A stretch of 64,000 nucleotides of DNA. Origin: an uncultured Lachnospiraceae bacterium. Its GTDB lineage: Bacteria > Bacillota > Clostridia > Lachnospirales > Lachnospiraceae. Of this stretch, positions 51,222 to 58,513 are shown one piece after another. Both the position numbers and the translations under genes were made by a program. Numbering within the stretch: position 1 is the first letter of the stretch; each line of letters starts with the position of its first letter. The notes under the pieces were generated by a model. It was not told the DNA's origin and made no database searches. It saw nothing but the letters and a program-made list of their open reading frames with translations. Where the stretch lies: NCBI GenBank assembly GCA_947174015.1, contig CAMWHJ010000005.1:5014-69013 (forward strand), written 5' to 3'.

Positions 51222-51834
51222 TTAATTACAACCACAGTTACAATCGTTACGATTTGGTTTTGGCATCACATTTGCAGTGTTAGTTTCATTGCTATTGCAG
51301 TTGCAGTTAGAAGTTTTCTGGGGGCAGTCAAAAGCAGGGTTAAAGGCATAGAAGTTTTTCGCATCCAGATGCTCCTGTACAATCCGCAGGGCTTCACCGA
51401 AACGCTGGAAGTGTACAATTTCACGCTGACGCAGAAAACGAATGGGATCTGCTACATCATGGTCATGTACCAGACGCAGTATGTTGTCATAGGTGGAGCG
51501 GGCTTTCTGTTCCGCAGCCAAATCTTCCACCAGATCGGTGATGGGATCTCCCTTAGACTGAAATTCGCATGCATTAAAAGGAATACCGCCAGCAGCTTGG
51601 GGCCATAAGCCGGTGGTGTGGTCAACATAATATTTGTCAAAGCCGGAAGCTACAATTTCGTCGGGGGTGAGATTTCTGGTAAGCTGGAATACAATGGTGC
51701 CTACCATTTCGAGATGTGCTAATTCTTCCGTTCCGATATCCGTCAATGTTCCCATAACCTCCCGATAAGGCATTGCATACCGTTGGGACAGATAACGCAT
51801 GGAGGCAGCCAGCTCTCCATCAGGACCACCAAAT
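51222..51834 (-). CDS. cotJC: cotJC 3-prime segment (Mn-catalase-family spore coat protein, residues 29-231 of the reconstituted protein); not translatable on its own from the native start
   Basis: Reads FGGPDGELAASMRYLSQRYAMPYREVMGTLTDIGTEELAHLEMVG... (di-metal ligand motifs of the CotJC/Mn-catalase family). The frame is closed by TGA 36 nt upstream of the junction core. Confidence 0.9.
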
Positions 51835-51849
51835 AACGTTAAGATATAG
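51824..51849. repeat. Element/chromosome junction 1 (att half-sites): core GACCACCAAAT plus inner arm ACGTTAAGATATAG
   Basis: The core is identical to 57561-57571. The arm 51836-51849 is the exact reverse complement of 57541-57554. Confidence 0.85.
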
Positions 51850-51907
51850 CACTGTTTTTCCTTGCAAAATCAAGGTTTTCAGACAAACCAAGACTACAAT
51901 ACGACTT

Positions 51908-53344
51908 TTATGATTTGTAAAATATGATTTCAAGAGATTTGCTCTCACGCTGGTATTTGATTTCTTTTACAATCTGCCGGAGAGAGGAGGCCTTTTCTTC
52001 GGAATCAGCATCAGACCGGAGAAGTTGAGCCACAGTTTTGCAATCCTCCATCAGTTGCCTGCGCAGCAGTGGAGAATCCTCCGGCATTTTTGTTTCAAAT
52101 ATTTTCTGCTCTATTTCATGCCGTTCCTTTTGTATGGCTTCTTTATTTTCTTTATATTCTTCCAAAGTATCAATTTCTGCCAGATAAGCCTCTTTACAGC
52201 GTTTTTCCTTTTTATCCAAATATGCAAGCTGTTTCTTGAAGTTGGCAAGGTCAATCTTCATATTCGCCTTTGGCAGAATGTCAAAATGGATGGTATCATA
52301 GTCCACATTATCCAAAATTTCAAGCAGCATTTTCTCCATATTATTCTGTGAAATATAACAGGAGCCGGGATGCATTCCCTTAGTATATTTGTAACACTGG
52401 AATCCTCCCTGTTTATTTTCCGGGTGATAATAAGTCATGGTAGCACCGCATACACCGCATTTTAAAAGACCACAGATGTAATGCTTTGAATATCCTACCC
52501 CTTTACGTCTTGCAGGGGTATATGAGCTTTCTATGCGTTTCTGAACATCATTAAAATCCCCTTCGGATATAAGAGGTTCATGTTTTCCGTCAGCAATAAT
52601 GATGTCATCCGGGTCATGATTCTGGTGCGAAGAATGGGAGGCACGATTCCAGCGAACTTTGCCAATGTAAAAAGGATTTTGCAAAATATAGCGAACGGTT
52701 CTGAGTTCAAAAGGATATCCACGCTTGGTCTTATGCCCCTGTTCATTTAATTTTCTTGCAATACTGGAAAAATCAATGCCTTCTAAATAAGATGTGTAGA
52801 TATACTTTACAATGGCAGCCTCTTTCTCATTGACCATTGGAATTTTGCCGGGAACAGAATCGTATCCGAGAGGAGCAGCGGACTGGTAGCCTCCCCGCAA
52901 TGCTTTTTCTGTCATGCCCCGCCGTACTTCACTGGCCAGATTAATGGAGTAAAATTCATCAAACCATTCGATAATGCGTTCAATCAGTGAACCAAAAGGC
53001 CCCTCTATAATCGGTTCACTGATCGATATCACATTTACACCGTTTTTTTCAAGTAAGGATTTGTAGACAATGCTTTCTTCCTGGTTTCTGGCAAAACGTG
53101 AGAATTTCCATACAAGGATAGCATCAAATTCTCTGTTTCTGGCAGCAACGATCATTTTCTGAAATTCTGGCCGCTTATCTGCCTTTTTCCCCGAAATTCC
53201 GTTTTCCATATAGATATGATCCGCAAGGACCTCATATCCGTTTTTCTTGGCATATTCAATCAGAAGTCGTTTCTGGGCATCCGGGGAGAGCTCCTCCTGT
53301 TTGGAGGTGCTCACCCGGATATAGAGAGCAGCGGTATTCTGCAT
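51908..53344 (-). CDS. large serine recombinase (SpoIVCA/phage-integrase type)
   Basis: N-terminal resolvase catalytic domain (AALYIRVSTSKQ with the nucleophile Ser; VWKFSRFARN), a recombinase domain, a zinc ribbon (CGLLKCGVCGATMTY...FQCYKY) and a C-terminal coiled coil. 478 aa. Confidence 0.95.
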   Translation of the reverse strand: MQNTAALYIRVSTSKQEELSPDAQKRLLIEYAKKNGYEVLADHIYMENGISGKKADKRPEFQKMIVAARNREFDAILVWKFSRFARNQEESIVYKSLLEKNGVNVISISEPIIEGPFGSLIERIIEWFDEFYSINLASEVRRGMTEKALRGGYQSAAPLGYDSVPGKIPMVNEKEAAIVKYIYTSYLEGIDFSSIARKLNEQGHKTKRGYPFELRTVRYILQNPFYIGKVRWNRASHSSHQNHDPDDIIIADGKHEPLISEGDFNDVQKRIESSYTPARRKGVGYSKHYICGLLKCGVCGATMTYYHPENKQGGFQCYKYTKGMHPGSCYISQNNMEKMLLEILDNVDYDTIHFDILPKANMKIDLANFKKQLAYLDKKEKRCKEAYLAEIDTLEEYKENKEAIQKERHEIEQKIFETKMPEDSPLLRRQLMEDCKTVAQLLRSDADSEEKASSLRQIVKEIKYQRESKSLEIIFYKS

Positions 53345-53365
53345 ATTTATCTCATCCTTTCAAAG

Positions 53366-53379
53366 TTGCACCGGTGCAA
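53366..53379. promoter_or_regulatory. Perfect 14-bp palindrome TTGCACCGGTGCAA between the hicB stop and the recombinase RBS
   Basis: It abuts the hicB TAA stop and lies 21 nt upstream of the recombinase ATG. An identical copy sits at 54315-54328. Confidence 0.4.
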
Positions 53380-53775
53380 TTATCGCACGCCGATTTTCTG
53401 AATTAAAGCTTCTTGAAGTACCTGAGAAAAGTTTACACCATAGGCAGTAGCTTCCTCGTTGAGCCATTCCGGAATAGTAAGGGTTTTCTTAACCGCCTTA
53501 TTGTTATACATTTTTCGATATTTCATCGTATCTGCTTTTATATAGTTTACAAATTCGTTTTCCATAAGATGAATATCTGAGGGATTGCTTGGTTCTGGGA
53601 TTGTCTTGCCGTCTACTTCGTAACCATATAGCACAAGTGCAAGGACATCCTCTGCCATTTCAATTCCCTCTTCTAAAGTGTCAGCACATGTATAACAGCT
53701 TTCCAAATCCCTGAAAGTAATAGAGTAATTTCCCTCCGGCTCCTTTGTAAAAATGGCTGGATATACATACTTCAT
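53380..53775 (-). CDS. hicB: HicB-family antitoxin with a C-terminal ribbon-helix-helix-like DNA-binding tail
   Basis: MKYVYPAIFTKEPEGNYSITFRDLESCYTCADTLEEGIEMAEDVL (HicB/UPF0150 fold) and C-terminal TLTIPEWLNEEATAYGVNFSQVLQEAL. Confidence 0.85.
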   Translation of the reverse strand: MKYVYPAIFTKEPEGNYSITFRDLESCYTCADTLEEGIEMAEDVLALVLYGYEVDGKTIPEPSNPSDIHLMENEFVNYIKADTMKYRKMYNNKAVKKTLTIPEWLNEEATAYGVNFSQVLQEALIQKIGVR

Positions 53776-54005
53776 AAGATAACCTCCTTAAGATATATAA
53801 ATAGTATGAGGTATTGCATGGGTGATATCCCTGCATCCTCTCTAATGCGGTTGCAAGTTCCGGTTGGAACATCCTGAGATGGATGCCTTGGCACAGGAAA
53901 ACTCTTTCCAGTGTGGGGGCTGAATCAGATATCATGCCTCTTGCCATGCCTTTGCAGGTAACAGCCGTTTTTCTTTAGTAATTTGATAAGTTCAGATACT
54001 TTCAA
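53772..54005 (-). pseudogene. hicA: hicA toxin gene inactivated by an in-frame TGA at codon 27
   Basis: TTG start after AAGGAGGG. Reads LKVSELIKLLKKNGCYLQRHGKRHDI, then TGA (53927-53925), then FSPHTGKSFPVPRHPSQDVPTGTCNRIREDAGIS. HicA homologues have Trp (TGG) at the TGA position. The terminal TGA overlaps the hicB ATG. Confidence 0.75.
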
Positions 54006-54030
54006 TCCACGCCCTCCTTTCACTATAATT

Positions 54031-54059
54031 AATATAGCACGTATATACACGTGTGTCAA
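54031..54059 (-). promoter_or_regulatory. sigma-A promoter of the hicA(pseudo)-hicB(-recombinase) transcription unit
   Basis: TTGACA, 17-nt spacer, TATATT. The spacer CACGTGTATATACGTGC is itself near-palindromic and is a likely HicB operator. Confidence 0.6.
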
Positions 54060-54107
54060 TGACATGTATAGGTAGAGTGTAAGGTGACAATTTCTAATAT
54101 CCAATGC

Positions 54108-54305
54108 CATAAAAAGACAAAATATGAGTTTACAAAATAAAAATAATATGATATACTTGAGAAGTAGTCAGATGTATCTTAAATTCTCCCCTAAAGATAT
54201 TAGATGCATCAAAGATTACTCCCTCTTCATATTAGTAATTTTTGCAAACCGCAGCATAGATGATATGCTGCGGTTTTCTCTTTCGTAAAAGTAAAGTCTT
54301 GACAA
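54108..54305. repeat. Copy 1 of a roughly 200-bp direct repeat (about 95 percent identical to 55067-55266)
   Basis: Base-by-base comparison shows only a handful of substitutions and one 2-nt indel. Confidence 0.95.
54164..54283 (+). ncRNA. Candidate small RNA, copy 1 (about 120 nt), divergent from the hicA promoter
   Basis: TTTACA (54129), 17-nt spacer, TGATATACT extended -10 (ends 54157). Terminator is a 12-bp perfect stem AACCGCAGCATA/TATGCTGCGGTT (54247-54275) plus TTCTCTTT. C-rich motifs CTCCCCT and CTCCCTC. Confidence 0.4.
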
Positions 54306-54314
54306 GCATCAAAG

Positions 54315-54328
54315 TTGCACCGGTGCAA
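54315..54328. promoter_or_regulatory. Second copy of the palindrome TTGCACCGGTGCAA, abutting the stop of the second hicB
   Basis: Identical 14-mer with the same flanks (CAAAG...TATCG). Immediately follows the hicB TAG. Confidence 0.4.
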
Positions 54329-54736
54329 CTATCGTACACTGGTTTTTTTGGACATATCCAGAAGGGCATCCTGCAATATTTTTGAGAAATTTACATTGTT
54401 TTTTTCTCCAAAAGTATTAAGCCATGCAGGTAAAGTGATGTTTTTGCGTACTGTCTTTTCCCCATATTTTTCTGAATAAGTGTCCATGTCAAGGACCAGC
54501 AGATTAACAAAACTTCCAGTGGGAACTTCCAGTTCAGTGAACTCAGAAGCAGCAGGAATGGAGTTTCCTTCTTCCAATTCCAAAAGAATCCAACCGGATG
54601 CTGCATCCGTTCCCATCTCAATGGCATCAATTAGGTTATCGCCTTCACTAACGCAGCCGGGCAAGTCAGGAAAGGTGACTGTATAACCGTCTTTTTCGAT
54701 ACATGGCATAAAAATTGCCGGGTAAATGAGTTTCAT
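54329..54736 (-). CDS. hicB: HicB-family antitoxin (second, diverged copy)
   Basis: MKLIYPAIFMPCIEKDGYTVTFPDLPGCVSEGDNLIDAIEMGTDA... and C-terminal ITLPAWLNTFGEKNNVNFSKILQDAL. AGGAG lies 9 nt upstream of ATG 54736. Confidence 0.85.
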   Translation of the reverse strand: MKLIYPAIFMPCIEKDGYTVTFPDLPGCVSEGDNLIDAIEMGTDAASGWILLELEEGNSIPAASEFTELEVPTGSFVNLLVLDMDTYSEKYGEKTVRKNITLPAWLNTFGEKNNVNFSKILQDALLDMSKKTSVR

Positions 54737-54765
54737 ATTCATACACTCCTTTTTCGGAAGCAAGA

Positions 54766-54948
54766 CTATTTTAGTCCTGCTTGTTTTAATATTGAATTAG
54801 CGGTACCTTTATCGACATCTCCGGCATGAAAAGGTATTGTCACCTTTCCGGGTTTGGAATCATGCTTGTAATGTCTATGGGAGCCGACTTGTCGTATCAG
54901 GTGCCAGCCATCCTCTAATAATATCTTTTCAAGTTCCCTAGCTCTCAT
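54766..54948 (-). CDS. hicA: HicA-family mRNA interferase toxin (intact)
   Basis: 60 aa, MRARELEKILLEDGWHLIRQVGSHRHYKHDSKPGKVTIPFHAGDVDKGTANSILKQAGLK. AAGGAGG RBS. Confidence 0.9.
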   Translation of the reverse strand: MRARELEKILLEDGWHLIRQVGSHRHYKHDSKPGKVTIPFHAGDVDKGTANSILKQAGLK

Positions 54949-54974
54949 CTTTAATGTGCCTCCTTATAGTTATA

Positions 54975-55002
54975 ATTATACACATTATACACACAAAGTC
55001 AA
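54975..55002 (-). promoter_or_regulatory. sigma-A promoter of hicA-hicB module 2, with palindromic operator candidates
   Basis: TTGACT, 16-nt spacer, TATAAT. A 17-bp palindrome ATGTGTATTATACACAT lies just upstream. Confidence 0.5.
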
Positions 55003-55066
55003 TAGAAGATGTGTATAATACACATAAATAGTATGAGGTATTGCAGGGTTTATATCCCTGCGATGT

Positions 55067-55266
55067 CATAAAAAGACAAAATATGAGTTTACAAAATGAA
55101 AATAATGTGATATAGTAGAAAAGTAGTCAGATGTATCTTAAATTCTCCCCTAAAGATAGTAGGTGCATCAAAGATTACTCCCTATCTTCATATTAGTAAT
55201 TTTTGCAAACCGCAGCATAGATGATATGTTGCGGTTTTCTCTTTCGTAAAAGTAAAGTCTTGACAA
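55067..55266. repeat. Copy 2 of the roughly 200-bp direct repeat
   Basis: See 54108-54305. Confidence 0.95.
55123..55244 (+). ncRNA. Candidate small RNA, copy 2
   Basis: TTTACA (55088), 17-nt spacer, TGATATAGT. The terminator stem 55208-55236 carries one C-to-T change that converts a G-C pair to G-U, so the stem is preserved. Confidence 0.4.
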
Positions 55267-55369
55267 AATTCTGGTCAAGAATAACTTTTTTTAAGTGAAA
55301 AAATGTCAAGAATAACAGATAAAAGAAAAGCCCATGTAAAATGCAGGGGCTTTAGAAAATGGCTGGAAA

Positions 55370-56188
55370 TTAGCTTACTCTTAGACTAAGTGTTTCATAA
55401 TACTCTCGTGCTCCGGGGATTTTGGTAAATACAGCAGTATTATTAAACTGTTTCTTCACTACATCCTCAATCTCATCAATGCTAACATGAAAGAACTCCT
55501 TTCGAAGATTAACCAGATTGACACGCTGATTTTGGAAATGTTTATGCAATGCATGTTCTAGTGCCGGAGCATCATCTGAGAATATCATGGCATGAACATC
55601 AAACTCAAATGGAACAGAAGCACTGCTGAGTTCTTTTACACGATCCATAGGTTCCAAGCGGCGTGTCATACCAATTTTATAAATGTCCTCTCCAAAAGAA
55701 CCAATATTCGAGATAATATAGACATAACCTGCTTTTGCATTCGCTTCTCGTTCGAGAACGGTATTTTTTTCAGATTCCAGTTGTCTCAAGCGTTCCTCTA
55801 GTTCTCTGATTTTATCAATATATAATTGTTTTTCAGCAGAATCATTAGAGTTTTGCATATATTGCATCAGACGTTTCATTTCATTGTTGTGCTGAGCTTG
55901 GTCTTTTTCAATTTTGGCTTTTTGACGTTCGATTTCTTTTCTGACTTTTTCTTCTTCTGCCATTTGCTCACGGATAGAGCGTTGTATCTCTGCCTCCTGT
56001 TCTTTTTTCAACTCAAAGGTATAAACAAGATTCCACTTATCTAATTTCAGTTTTAAAATTTCAAGGTTTAGTTGGACACCGTCTACCACAAATATCTTAC
56101 TTAAGAGTTTCAAAAGATTTTGAAATCTTTTCACGAAAGGAGAGATATAACATGGTAAGTACTGCAGTAGAAAACAAAAATTACACAC
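55370..56188 (-). pseudogene. N-terminally truncated DUF4041 / T5orf172 (GIY-YIG-like) domain protein
   Basis: C-terminal GYVYIISNIGSFGEDIYKIGMTRRLEPMDRVKELSSASVPFEFDVHAMIFSDDAPALEHALHKHF...KEFF is a T5orf172 domain, preceded by the coiled-coil part of DUF4041. Homology is lost upstream of about 56130, and the first 20 or so codons of the ORF look like junk. Confidence 0.65.
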
Positions 56189-56319
56189 CAGAAGAATTAG
56201 CAGGTCTTTGCAGATTCTTAGAAGTTTATAGAAAGCCTTGGAAAATAGAAAGGAGAGTGAAAAACTGGATTGGCGATATCACACTAAGGGTCAAGGTAGA
56301 TAAAGAAAGCATGAATTAG
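56152..56319 (+). CDS. 55-aa hypothetical ORF at the truncation point of the DUF4041 gene
   Basis: AAAGGAGAG RBS 7 nt upstream of the ATG. No recognisable domain. May be a gene fragment. Confidence 0.25.
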   Translation: MVSTAVENKNYTPEELAGLCRFLEVYRKPWKIERRVKNWIGDITLRVKVDKESMN

Positions 56320-56486
56320 AGAAACAGCATGAAATGCTAGGGAGAACAATTACAGAACTAAAGAAAATGGTAGAAGTAGAAAAAAGAACCCACCAGAGGG
56401 CAGGTTTCTAAAAACGGACAGGTGTGAATAACCGCATAGCGTACAAACCATAGAACATAAATTAAAAAAAGAAAGGAGGGGTAGTT

Positions 56487-56666
56487 ATGGCAGCAAAACC
56501 ATTACCACTTTCAAATGGATTCTCTGCAATTATTCACGTAGAGCAGACGGATGGAACTGTAAAAGACATTCAATCATGGGAAGAACTATCAGAGGAGTTT
56601 AAGGTACTGAACCCACAGGCATTGCGTGCAGTAGGACTTGTGCCGCATAAAGACAATGCCGGATGA
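56487..56666 (+). CDS. 59-aa hypothetical protein (below the ORF-track cutoff)
   Basis: Strong RBS AAAGGAGGGG 6 nt upstream of the ATG. Reads MAAKPLPLSNGFSAIIHVEQTDGTVKDIQSWEELSEEFKVLNPQALRAVGLVPHKDNAG. Confidence 0.4.
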   Translation: MAAKPLPLSNGFSAIIHVEQTDGTVKDIQSWEELSEEFKVLNPQALRAVGLVPHKDNAG

Positions 56667-56719
56667 TGAGAACAAAAAATAGAATGCGTTTATTGAACTG
56701 ATGGACTGAAAATTGAATA

Positions 56720-56838
56720 TTGGCTGTGCACCAGAAGCCGCACTGGGATCCTCATTGATACGATATATTTCAAATACTCCACCTCAATAATAATAGATTT
56801 GCTGCAACCTTCCGGTGCGGTGTCTAGTGCACAGCCAA
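56720..56838. repeat. Imperfect 29-bp inverted repeats flanking a 61-bp spacer
   Basis: TTGGCTGTGCACCAGAAGCCGCACTGGGA (56720-56748) versus the reverse complement of 56810-56838. The outer 12 bp are perfect, with 24 of 29 matching overall. Confidence 0.7.
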
Positions 56839-57069
56839 AGCAAAAAAGAAGAAACAAACAACAAATGGCAAGATTAACTTATAAAAACAAAAATGGAACA
56901 TGGGGACTTAACAACGGTTACGATATGCACAAAGTTCCGAAAGAGTTGTATGGAGTTCTGTGGAAATTAAAGGATTATTATAAAAGAGTGGCAGCAGGTC
57001 CTGAAAAAACGCCTCATCAAAGAAGACAGGGAACTATCAAGAATCAGTGCCGTAAAACGAACAGAAAAC

Positions 57070-57203
57070 ATAAAAGAACTGCAGGAAAACCCATAGAGCA
57101 GGTTCAGGCAATGCTAGGGCATGAGAGCATAGACACAACCCTAATCTATGCAAGAACCAACGATTCTACTGTAAAAGAAAGCCACAAACGATATTTAACA
57201 TAA
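57070..57203 (+). pseudogene. C-terminal fragment of a tyrosine recombinase/integrase
   Basis: AGKPIEQVQAMLGHESIDTTLIYARTNDSTVKESHKRY carries the LGH...TT..Y catalytic-Tyr motif. The upstream part of the same ORF (MARLTYKNKNGTWGLNNGYD...WKLKDYY) is an unrelated phage-type fragment. Confidence 0.6.
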
Positions 57204-57540
57204 GGAGGCAACAGGTGGAATTGCGTATCGACAGCAGGTAAGCTGGTTATACAACAGTTGAGGTAAAACAACATTCCAGTGTTTTACATGCACCCACAAA
57301 GCTTTTGCAGGAAAGTATATTGGAAAAGAAATTTTCCTATGAAGGATCAAAACTTTATGAAATCAATTTCCAAAACGCAAGGTGTGTGGAGGATAACAAT
57401 TTGAACAAATATGTGAATAAGAAAATGGAAAATTCGGAGCCAAGACTAAGCAGGCTTGTCGGACAGTTTCAGAAAAAAGTAGTGCGAAAACCAGAGGAGC
57501 CCAGATTGTGCAGGCAAATAATTTTTACAAAATATAAATA

Positions 57541-57571
57541 CTATATCTTAACGTAATTCAGACCACCAAAT
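57541..57571. repeat. Element/chromosome junction 2 (att half-sites): inner arm CTATATCTTAACGT, 6-nt spacer, core GACCACCAAAT
   Basis: See junction 1. Arm and core are exact matches. Confidence 0.85.
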
Positions 57572-57654
57572 TGAGATATAATAACCTGTGCCAGCTTAGG
57601 ATTGGAAGTTTTAATATTTACCGGATACTGCAATTTTTTTTCATAACTCCACAT
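57561..57654 (-). CDS. cotJC: cotJC 5-prime segment (codons 1-31 of the reconstituted gene)
   Basis: The ATG directly follows the cotJB TAA. MWSYEKKLQYPVNIKTSNPKLAQVIISQFGG is a typical CotJC N-terminus. In the integrated state it runs into the element and stops after LNYVKI. Confidence 0.9.
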
Positions 57655-57930
57655 TTAGCAATTTCCTCCTTCCCAAGGCCATGGGGATAGCACCCAATCC
57701 CATTTCGTTTGACTGTTGCCAGTAAGAGCCAGAGTCAAAGGAGTGAAACGGGTAGAATATTCTTTCATGGCTGTATTTTTCATTTCCACACATTCCTGAT
57801 AGAATTTCAAAGCCTCCATATCATCAGGATGGGTATCCAAATAGAGGGCAGTTTCCACCACCGCAAAGCTAATCATGTGAATCCAGTCAAAAAGTTGTTC
57901 ACGATTCATACGACTGCAGCTGGAATTCAT
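57655..57930 (-). CDS. cotJB: spore coat protein CotJB
   Basis: FAVVETALYLDTHPDDMEALKFYQE...WDWVLSPWPWE matches the CotJB signature. Confidence 0.9.
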   Translation of the reverse strand: MNSSCSRMNREQLFDWIHMISFAVVETALYLDTHPDDMEALKFYQECVEMKNTAMKEYSTRFTPLTLALTGNSQTKWDWVLSPWPWEGGNC

Positions 57931-58139
57931 GGGCAGGCCCTCCTTCCGATAAATGGTTTATCTAATTCGGGAAATAGAGTACCCTGCTGCAGTGCTTTGT
58001 CAAAATCGTAAATCTGATTCCATGTCTGCCAAGGTACATAAGTCATGCCAACAGGAAAATGATCGGGAAATCCTTCTCTTTTTTGATAGGGCATGCAACG
58101 TTGCTGGGGCATGGAACGGTTACATCTACAATCTGCCAT
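57927..58139 (-). CDS. cotJA: spore coat-associated protein CotJA
   Basis: GMTYVPWQTWNQIYDFDKALQQGTLFPELDKPF matches the CotJA signature. ATG 58139 lies after AAAGGA (the ORF opens at TTG 58157). Confidence 0.8.
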   Translation of the reverse strand: MADCRCNRSMPQQRCMPYQKREGFPDHFPVGMTYVPWQTWNQIYDFDKALQQGTLFPELDKPFIGRRACP

Positions 58140-58171
58140 CCAAGCAAATCCTTTCAAAGAATGTTCATAAT

Positions 58172-58198
58172 TATAGTATGCGGCTGATAAGGATATGT
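58172..58198 (-). promoter_or_regulatory. Candidate mother-cell (sigma-E/sigma-K type) promoter of cotJABC
   Basis: On the minus strand: AC, 16-nt spacer, CATACTATA. This fits sigma-K AC-N16/17-CATANNNTA, and the -10 also resembles sigma-E CATACA-T. It ends 33 nt upstream of the cotJA ATG. Confidence 0.4.
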
Positions 58199-58513
58199 GA
58201 ATGGCAAATAGCTACTTGTACAAAATTCACAAAGATAAATAAAAAGTAAAAAAAATGGAATAATGACAGTTAAGTAACTCAAAAAATAAAAACTGGTTTT
58301 TAAAAGGAAAAATTGTCCATAAAGAAACTGTCAGGAAAAAAAATAAATTTATTTACAAATGAGTGACACATGATATTTCGGTAAAAATGACGAAAAGTTT
58401 ACAAAACATTGAAAAATGAAAAAAAATATGTGCAAAATGTGAACAAAAGTGTTATACTGAGATGGAAACATATAGACGGATTTAACAAAAAATGTGAAAG
58501 GAAGGAAAAAGAT

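Follow-up and report, generated by a model that had tools for sequence, protein, structure and literature searches.

A large serine recombinase gene behind a toxin-less hicAB unit in a cotJC-interrupting element of a Lachnospiraceae bacterium

The recombinase gene and the hicAB unit in front of it

The window analysed here is a stretch of 64,000 nucleotides (nt) from an uncultured Lachnospiraceae bacterium (GenBank assembly GCA_947174015.1, contig CAMWHJ010000005.1, positions 5,014 to 69,013 of the forward strand), and all positions below are those of the window unless another contig or locus is named. At about 51830-57560 it carries a 5.7-kb element that interrupts cotJC, with cotJB and cotJA upstream. 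At one end of the element, a large serine recombinase gene lies directly behind a hicAB toxin-antitoxin unit (unit 2) whose toxin gene is dead. Skin-like elements are textbook examples of programmed DNA rearrangement, and control of the recombinase supply is known for few of them. The recombinase was compared across 61 genomes (60 relatives and the window's own genome, G000); the wider family set comprised 401 Lachnospiraceae genomes, and the viral set consisted of IMG/VR contigs. The features at the recombinase end are the following.

51908-53344, minus strand: large serine recombinase gene, 478 amino acids (aa); Pfam Resolvase 2.2e-32 (residues 5-152) and Recombinase 2.2e-26
53351-53360, minus strand: ribosome-binding site (RBS) of the recombinase gene, AAAGGATGAG; 'gaaaggatga' is common to the phage recombinase leaders of G026, L180 and L140
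53366-53379, minus strand: palindrome copy A, TTGCACCGGTGCAA, directly after the hicB-2 stop codon and ending 21 nt before the recombinase ATG
53380-53775, minus strand: hicB-2, intact antitoxin gene, 131 aa; Pfam HicB_lk_antitox 3.9e-10
53774-54005 (TTG at 54005), minus strand: hicA-2 pseudogene; Pfam HicA_toxin 1.9e-16 with the TGA read as Trp
53789-53834, minus strand: D3 repeat, copy 2, 46 nt; 87% identical to 55016-55061, abutting the hicB-2 RBS
54031-54059, minus strand: hicA-2 promoter TTGACA-17-TATATT, sigma-A type, 11/12 consensus positions, TG before the -10

The recombinase open reading frame (ORF) is full length and has its catalytic serine in the motif YIRVSTSKQ; a match to Zn_ribbon_recom (8.9e-5, 23.2 bits) falls under the cut-off of 25.3. 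The protein is 65% identical to the recombinase of the cotJC element in the relative G001. Only 35 nt on the minus strand separate the hicB-2 stop codon (TAA, 53382-53380) from the recombinase ATG at 53344, and they hold the palindrome and the RBS and nothing else. An earlier reading of this locus, made from the letters alone, had described the gap in these terms and had seen neither a promoter nor a terminator in it, and our scans agree. Between 54031 and 53363 the minus strand contains no other promoter-like site (none reaching at least 9/12), and a weak site at 53363-53336 (9/12) overlaps the recombinase ATG and is unable to serve the gene. The terminator scan of the minus strand from 54031 to 51908 returned only 52576-52558, which lies inside the recombinase ORF, and the sigma-E/sigma-K pattern scan found nothing inside hicB-2 or the gap. 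The promoter scans apply simple consensus rules, which atypical promoters may escape. The two genes therefore share a strand and a short gap with no promoter-like or terminator-like site between them, and because the recombinase gene has neither a promoter of its own nor a preceding terminator, the default reading is that it is a downstream cistron of hicB-2.

The toxin gene of unit 2 carries two lesions. An in-frame TGA lies at 53927-53925, where tryptophan is found in all eight partner HicA proteins encoded beside HicB-2 homologues (motif H[DE]IW). The TGA is also present in a second assembly (ENA ERZ14208406, NODE_46), which is 100% identical over 7.4 kb, so the TGG-to-TGA knock-out named in the sequence-only reading is upheld. 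In addition, the normal C-terminus is missing, the 3' end and stop codon having been replaced by the D3 repeat. With a nonsense codon and a replaced 3' end, unit 2 has no intact HicA toxin. The antitoxin gene hicB-2 is intact, as had been noted, and its product ends in a ribbon-helix-helix-type tail with a weak match to CcdA (0.002); HicB-2 homologues occur in 119 of the 401 family genomes.

The nearest good promoter is the one previously singled out upstream of hicA-2, at 54059-54031. Its spacer contains two ACGTG boxes 10 nt apart, giving TTGACA-c-ACGTG-tatat-ACGTG-c-TATATT. The architecture TTGACA-c-ACGTr-N5-ACGTG-y-TATAAT is kept across eight homologous loci in other genera, and both the window promoter and that of the hicAB pair on contig C102 of G000 conform to it exactly. 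Judged by this conservation, it is a genuine, family-typical hicAB promoter, and the two boxes are likely the operator of HicB-2. Since the boxes are conserved in the homologous hicAB promoters, a toxin-less circuit in which HicB-2 autoregulates the 54059-54031 promoter is plausible. To this extent the HicB wiring proposed earlier is supported; the role suggested for the palindrome is not, as detailed below.

Loss of the native promoter and leader

Recombinases 47-65% identical to that of the window were found in G001, G006, G002, G026, G017 and G032, and the elements of G001, G017, G026 and G032 are likewise seated in cotJC. Upstream of the recombinase, all six relatives share a module that the window does not have.

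L002 + L003:2938-3155; L004 + L006:2959-3176; L007 + L005:1274-1491: the ~190-nt module, upstream of the recombinase genes of this clade

The module comprises a promoter (CTTACA-16-TATAAT with TG), an anti-Shine-Dalgarno stretch, ATCATC, able to base-pair with the GATGAT of the RBS in 6/6 sequences, and a hairpin with a T-run, for which G032 shows a compensatory change. Its opposite strand carries a promoter (TTGCAA-17-TATAAT) and a 13-bp terminator around an invariant GCTACCAACA, and may encode a small antisense RNA that overlaps the leader.

As the module is present in six relatives and absent from the window, the comparison shows that the window recombinase has lost its native promoter and leader. 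The gene order of G001 gives the same picture. There, a full-length T5orf172 homologue, a form also found in the G026 prophage, stands directly upstream of the recombinase leader, in the order T5orf172 gene, 290-nt non-coding module, recombinase gene. In the window, the T5orf172 gene is truncated, and the two hicAB units, 2 kb in all, sit between it and the recombinase gene; nucleotide homology with G001 begins only at recombinase codon 3. By this comparison, the hicB-recombinase arrangement is a derived, lineage-specific rearrangement.

The palindrome at the junction

The palindrome between hicB-2 and the recombinase RBS recurs, with its flanks, behind the antitoxin gene of the second hicAB unit of the element (unit 1).

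54315-54328, minus strand: palindrome copy B, exact, directly after the hicB-1 stop codon
54329-54736, minus strand: hicB-1, intact, 135 aa; Pfam HicB_lk_antitox 3.2e-16; product 37% identical to HicB-2

These are the only two exact copies in the window (0.14 expected) and in the 3.2-Mb genome, which has in addition one variant with a single mismatch on contig C81. A 38-nt stretch around copies A and B is 87% identical (repeat D5), though the two HicB proteins share only 37% identity, so the recurrence with common flanks reported from the sequence alone is real. Relative to a 16-bp signature, GTTGCACCGGTGCAAC, copy A has 15 of the 16 bases (A for G at the left edge), and copy B is a full 18-bp palindrome.

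The distribution of the palindrome is that of a phage signature. It occurs in 24 of the 401 family genomes, whereas the reversed control occurs in none, and is usually present as two to six copies clustered on prophage contigs, and the exact 16-mer is present in more than 107 IMG/VR viral contigs. The sites are of two classes. In one, the palindrome stands between genes, at 0-8 nt from a stop codon and 15-35 nt from the start codon that follows, with baseplate, prohead protease, endolysin and integrase genes among those so preceded; in the other, it is part of a coding frame, where it encodes (E)VAPVQ, in genes that have otherwise diverged. Prophages thus carry several exact copies, both at gene borders and in frame within genes. 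By contrast with this phage-wide occurrence, the palindrome follows none of 29 HicB-2 homologues (48-72% identity), most of which have ordinary terminators at that place. Related phages have it before the recombinase RBS with no hicB nearby (G017, L180, L140 and, as a variant, G026). In these, it lies between the leader hairpin and the RBS and is followed by 'ctt...gaaaggatga', as in the window.

As RNA, the palindrome would form a hairpin of -3.1 kcal/mol, which the minimum-energy fold of the surrounding sequence does not include. The 39-kb prophage of G026 has five variant sites at module borders, and among them the half-sites vary independently (TTGAAC..GTGCAA, TTGAAC..GTTCAA, TTGCAC..GTACAA); the first of these would give A-G mismatches in RNA. 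Because the half-sites change independently, the hairpin is marginal and in-frame copies persist amid diverged flanks, we argue that the palindrome is a DNA site for a dimeric protein and not an RNA stem.

The sequence-only reading had offered two roles for it, a protein operator and a short RNA hairpin gating read-through or translation. An RNA attenuator was discarded on the folding energy and the independent half-site variation, and a HicB operator was rejected on its absence behind the 29 homologues and because both hicA promoters have their own, different repeats. A third hicAB pair of G000 at C102:6040-6710, beside phage replication genes (a Rep-like gene and DUF7666), has the promoter TTGATT-GCACGTGCAATACGTGT-TATAAT, whose ACGTG boxes are those of hicA-2. 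The 12-mer TTGCACGTGCAA within it was considered as a link to the palindrome and is explained by these hicAB-family boxes.

One in-frame palindrome lies inside the gene of a 511-aa early protein common to G026, G205, G107, G222 and G002, which makes this protein a candidate for the palindrome binder. It contains no Pfam domain, of ParB or any other kind, and a binder of the ParB type was set aside. A tblastn search with five homologues of the protein found no match in G000; with the candidate binder absent, the palindrome there is probably an orphan site. It would then be an inert leftover of a predicted phage-protein site that marks a recombination joint. A literature search for the palindrome string returned no papers.

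Repeated phage sites of this sort have precedents. The SPBRE of the Bacillus subtilis phage SPbeta is a 15-bp element to which the master repressor MrpR binds, present at some 9-10 intergenic sites (PMC10516654). In being a repeated element bound by one phage protein, it resembles the 16-bp palindrome of the source phage family, a predicted site of that kind. However, SPbeta is an intact phage with its repeated element in promoters, whereas the palindrome here also lies between cistrons and in frame in genes, and its candidate binder is absent from G000. Cluster A mycobacteriophages have stoperators, many identical short repressor sites across the prophage, often in short stop-to-start gaps. 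Stoperators are asymmetric and orientation-dependent; unlike them, the palindrome here is perfect and also occurs inside coding sequence.

The element as a whole and the supply of recombinase

The remaining features of the element and its ends are listed below.

51222-51800+: cotJC C-terminal part (Mn_catalase)
51832-51849: element end by the recombinase gene, an inverted arm pairing with 57541-57558, 94% complementary (repeat I4)
54104-54305, plus strand: 200-nt unit, copy 1, with a promoter at 54129-54157 and a hairpin at 54246-54276 (-20 kcal/mol, z -4.4)
54766-54948, minus strand: hicA-1, intact toxin gene, 60 aa; Pfam HicA_toxin 2.6e-22
54975-55002, minus strand: hicA-1 promoter TTGACT-16-TATAAT, 11/12, with tandem GTGTATAAT repeats
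55370-56188, minus strand: truncated DUF4041/T5orf172 gene; Pfam T5orf172 9.3e-20; 82% identical to G001
56487-56666 (region 56436-56666), plus strand: 59-aa ORF, candidate recombination directionality factor, with a sigma-E-like motif upstream
57541-57558: other element end, within the cotJC N-terminal fragment
57541-57654: cotJC N-terminal fragment

The inverted arms of the attachment sites flank a common core, TTTGGTGG. When the flanks are joined at this core, the reading ...SQFGG runs on into PDGEL... in frame, so the element interrupts a sporulation gene that would be restored by excision. Both cotJC halves are open and both arms intact, and with the recombinase ORF also intact the element still looks functional. 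A third copy of a promoter-like 21-mer, TTTACAAAATATAAATACTAT, at 57524-57544 overlaps the element end in the N-terminal fragment (repeat D4). An Rfam scan of 51500-58300 found nothing relevant. cotJC is a recurrent target, holding elements of about 6 kb to 39 kb in G000, G001, G017, G026 and G032. The largest, at C41:35290-74400 of G026 (L088-L090), is an apparently intact prophage of about 39 kb in cotJC, with the recombinase gene at its left end and an endolysin gene at its right. The 5.7-kb element, whose decayed genes include the truncated T5orf172 gene, an integrase fragment and the dead hicA, is best explained as what remains of a temperate phage that integrated into cotJC, of the type that G026 still carries intact.

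The operator-like GTGTATAAT repeats of the hicA-1 promoter are of a different type from the hicA-2 boxes, and neither resembles the palindrome. The other copy of the D3 repeat (55016-55061) lies upstream of this promoter. Each hicAB unit is preceded by a 200-nt repeat with a plus-strand promoter and a strong hairpin (54104-54305 and 55063-55266); the hairpin at 54246-54276 makes a good plus-strand terminator and, with its weak U-tract there, a poor one for hicAB-1 transcripts on the minus strand. More copies of the 200-nt unit, 83-88% identical, are on the G000 contigs C33 (52-206) and C81 (143-208), and C81 has a second, more diverged copy near 400-500. One of these extra copies is upstream of a tyrosine integrase gene, beside the palindrome variant TTGCACCAGTGCAA. 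Outside G000, an intact hicAB lies 13 nt before the start codon of a broken recombinase gene in G399 (C156; L087:8435-9724); a second copy of the recombinase N-terminal part stands upstream of its hicA, which looks like a hicAB insertion into the 5' end of the gene.

For the recombinase of the window, we favour, at somewhat better than even confidence, the following explanation: a captured gene whose native module was deleted and which is now co-transcribed from a hicA-2 promoter repressed by HicB-2. The ancestral phage would have had a recombinase gene with its own promoter, an anti-Shine-Dalgarno leader, a T-run hairpin and, in some phages, the 16-bp palindrome before the RBS. Two hicAB cassettes would then have entered between the T5orf172 gene and the recombinase gene. 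Recombination at or next to the palindrome would have fused the 3' end of hicB-2 to the palindrome and RBS of the recombinase gene, with deletion of the native promoter and leader. The most parsimonious course is for a hicB cassette with a palindrome at its end, as in unit 1, to have recombined with the palindrome before the recombinase gene. The 38-nt block, far more similar than the HicB proteins beside it, fits a joint at the palindrome.

In the resulting arrangement, the recombinase gene would be the last gene of a pseudo-hicA-2/hicB-2/recombinase transcript from the sigma-A promoter at 54059-54031, and we infer this co-transcription as the most economical reading of the layout. Repression of this promoter by HicB-2 is probable, with the two ACGTG boxes as its target. 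As the toxin is dead, the circuit would reduce to simple negative autoregulation, and recombinase should be supplied steadily and at a low level whatever the cell type; read-through from the hicA-1 promoter may add to this supply.

The timing of excision would then come from a separate directionality factor and not from the recombinase, as in two characterized systems. In the skinCd element of Clostridioides difficile, the recombinase CD1231 is sigma-A-driven and constitutive, and CD1234, which depends on sigma-E and SpoIIID, gives the timing (PMC5025042). SPbeta expresses sprA constitutively and has sprB under sigma-E/K (PMC5499854). The candidate for this role here is the 59-aa ORF, before which a sigma-E-like motif, ATA-N17-CATAAATT, lies at 56436-56463. 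Its homologue in the G001 element is 42% identical, with ATA-N17-CATAGATT upstream. On contig C93 of G001 (L092:9993-10195), this homologue is followed by TAG, TTGCACCGGTGCAA and an RBS, the same layout as behind hicB-2.

Like skinCd, the present element is a degenerate prophage-like element that splits a mother-cell sporulation gene and has a large serine recombinase gene at one end. Also as in skinCd, the recombinase would be expected to be constitutive from a sigma-A promoter, while a distinct small factor, transcribed from a sigma-E-type promoter (here a predicted one), would set the timing. A constitutive sprA beside a sporulation- or stress-specific sprB is the corresponding division of labour in SPbeta. 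The target, however, is cotJC and not sigK, and the sigma-A promoter would be a captured one, belonging to a probably HicB-autoregulated hicAB unit whose dead toxin gene and antitoxin gene separate it from the recombinase gene. Unit 2 has the properties of HicAB type II toxin-antitoxin operons in its order (hicA, then hicB), the predicted DNA-binding tail of HicB and promoter boxes conserved across homologous loci. It departs from the usual operon in its dead toxin, in having no terminator after hicB and in carrying the recombinase gene as an extra cistron. In the gin element, girC and girX both rise in sporulation (PMC5595907), so a developmental contribution to recombinase supply stays conceivable here too.

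Several observations weigh against the captured, HicB-regulated transcript. The case for HicB binding to the ACGTG boxes is one of conservation only. Because hicA-2 stops early, about 150 nt go untranslated, and polarity is possible. A sporulation-sigma-like motif just upstream of hicB-2 might provide an additional or alternative start. G001 and G006, the closest recombinase relatives, have no palindrome before the recombinase gene (the G001 element does carry it elsewhere), so recombination at the palindrome is argued from more distant relatives. Finally, a search of metagenome and genome collections with two patterns gave zero matches to the exact hicB-recombinase junction, which is carried solely by the identical assemblies; the junction could therefore be a recent accident, unselected so far.

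The sporulation-sigma-like motif belongs to the D3 repeat and reads GGATA-N17-CATACTA (53830-53802). Its -10 (53808-53802) stands some 27 nt ahead of the hicB-2 ATG. The motif could make hicB-2 and the recombinase gene a two-gene unit transcribed mainly from a sporulation-type promoter, perhaps alongside the sigma-A promoter, and recombinase supply would then be developmental. The motif fits the sigma-G consensus and, loosely, that of sigma-E, its position suits a short leader that includes the hicB-2 RBS, and it is conserved in both D3 copies. Yet this conservation amounts to a single event, both copies being the same repeat, and a search of about 90 related loci did not find D3. Chance matches in such regular-expression scans are fairly frequent: 0.19 are expected per element strand for the D3 motif, and the patterns range from about 0.2 (sigma-G) to 2.8 (loose sigma-E). 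Moreover, the sigma factor that the motif fits best is a forespore one, an implausible regulator of excision, and known elements with this recombinase type need no developmental recombinase promoter. We regard this source of transcription as unlikely. A promoter of a weak or non-canonical kind in the 3' part of hicB-2, serving the recombinase gene independently of the hicAB promoter, is very improbable: the region is AT-rich and simple scans overlook atypical promoters, but the coding strand has no site of at least 9/12 between 54031 and 53363 and the 3' part of hicB-2 no sigma-E/sigma-K pattern.

The recombinase gene might instead have lost effective expression, leaving a frozen relic with cotJC permanently split or dispensable and an operon look that arose by accident of phage mosaicism. 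The decayed neighbours, the uniqueness of the junction and the case of G399, where hicAB was inserted at the 5' end of a degraded recombinase gene, speak for such a relic. A full-length ORF with its catalytic motif, a good RBS, a strong upstream promoter with no terminator in between, intact attachment arms and cotJC halves that are open and rejoin in frame speak against it, and we think it improbable. Very doubtful, too, is an active gate at the palindrome, acting as a HicB operator or roadblock, or as an RNA hairpin controlling read-through or translation. In its favour are the site's position between stop codon and RBS, its identity behind both hicB genes, an extended 9-bp version in G017 that, with its T-rich tail, scores as terminator-like, and the 12-mer in the C102 hicAB promoter. 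However, the 12-mer is accounted for by the ACGTG boxes, the two HicB proteins have dissimilar promoter repeats that do not look like the palindrome, and the 29 homologues, the folding and the G026 half-sites all tell against a gate, while exact in-frame copies in diverged genes point to recognition at the DNA level, by a phage protein that G000 lacks.

Beyond the simple captured transcript, the toxin-less HicB could have been domesticated as a dedicated controller, keeping the transcript low and noise-damped and releasing a pulse of recombinase in response to stress or when sporulation begins, a step for which the usual protease lability of antitoxins would be the basis. The D3 motif may reinforce such control. 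We consider a domestication of this kind unlikely.

Should the captured-promoter explanation be right, the known logic of a constitutive recombinase with a separate directionality factor is kept, and what is new is the captured hicAB promoter. Phage mosaicism could then rewire the supply of an excision enzyme to a foreign, autoregulated promoter of a dead toxin-antitoxin unit without loss of the element, which would support the view that the directionality factor, and not the recombinase, carries the developmental information. The palindrome at the joint would fit a role as a module-exchange border, with one junction as the basis. If the junction is a mere accident, it would be an ordinary by-product of prophage decay; if HicB has indeed been domesticated, a toxin-antitoxin remnant would set the competence window for rebuilding cotJC.

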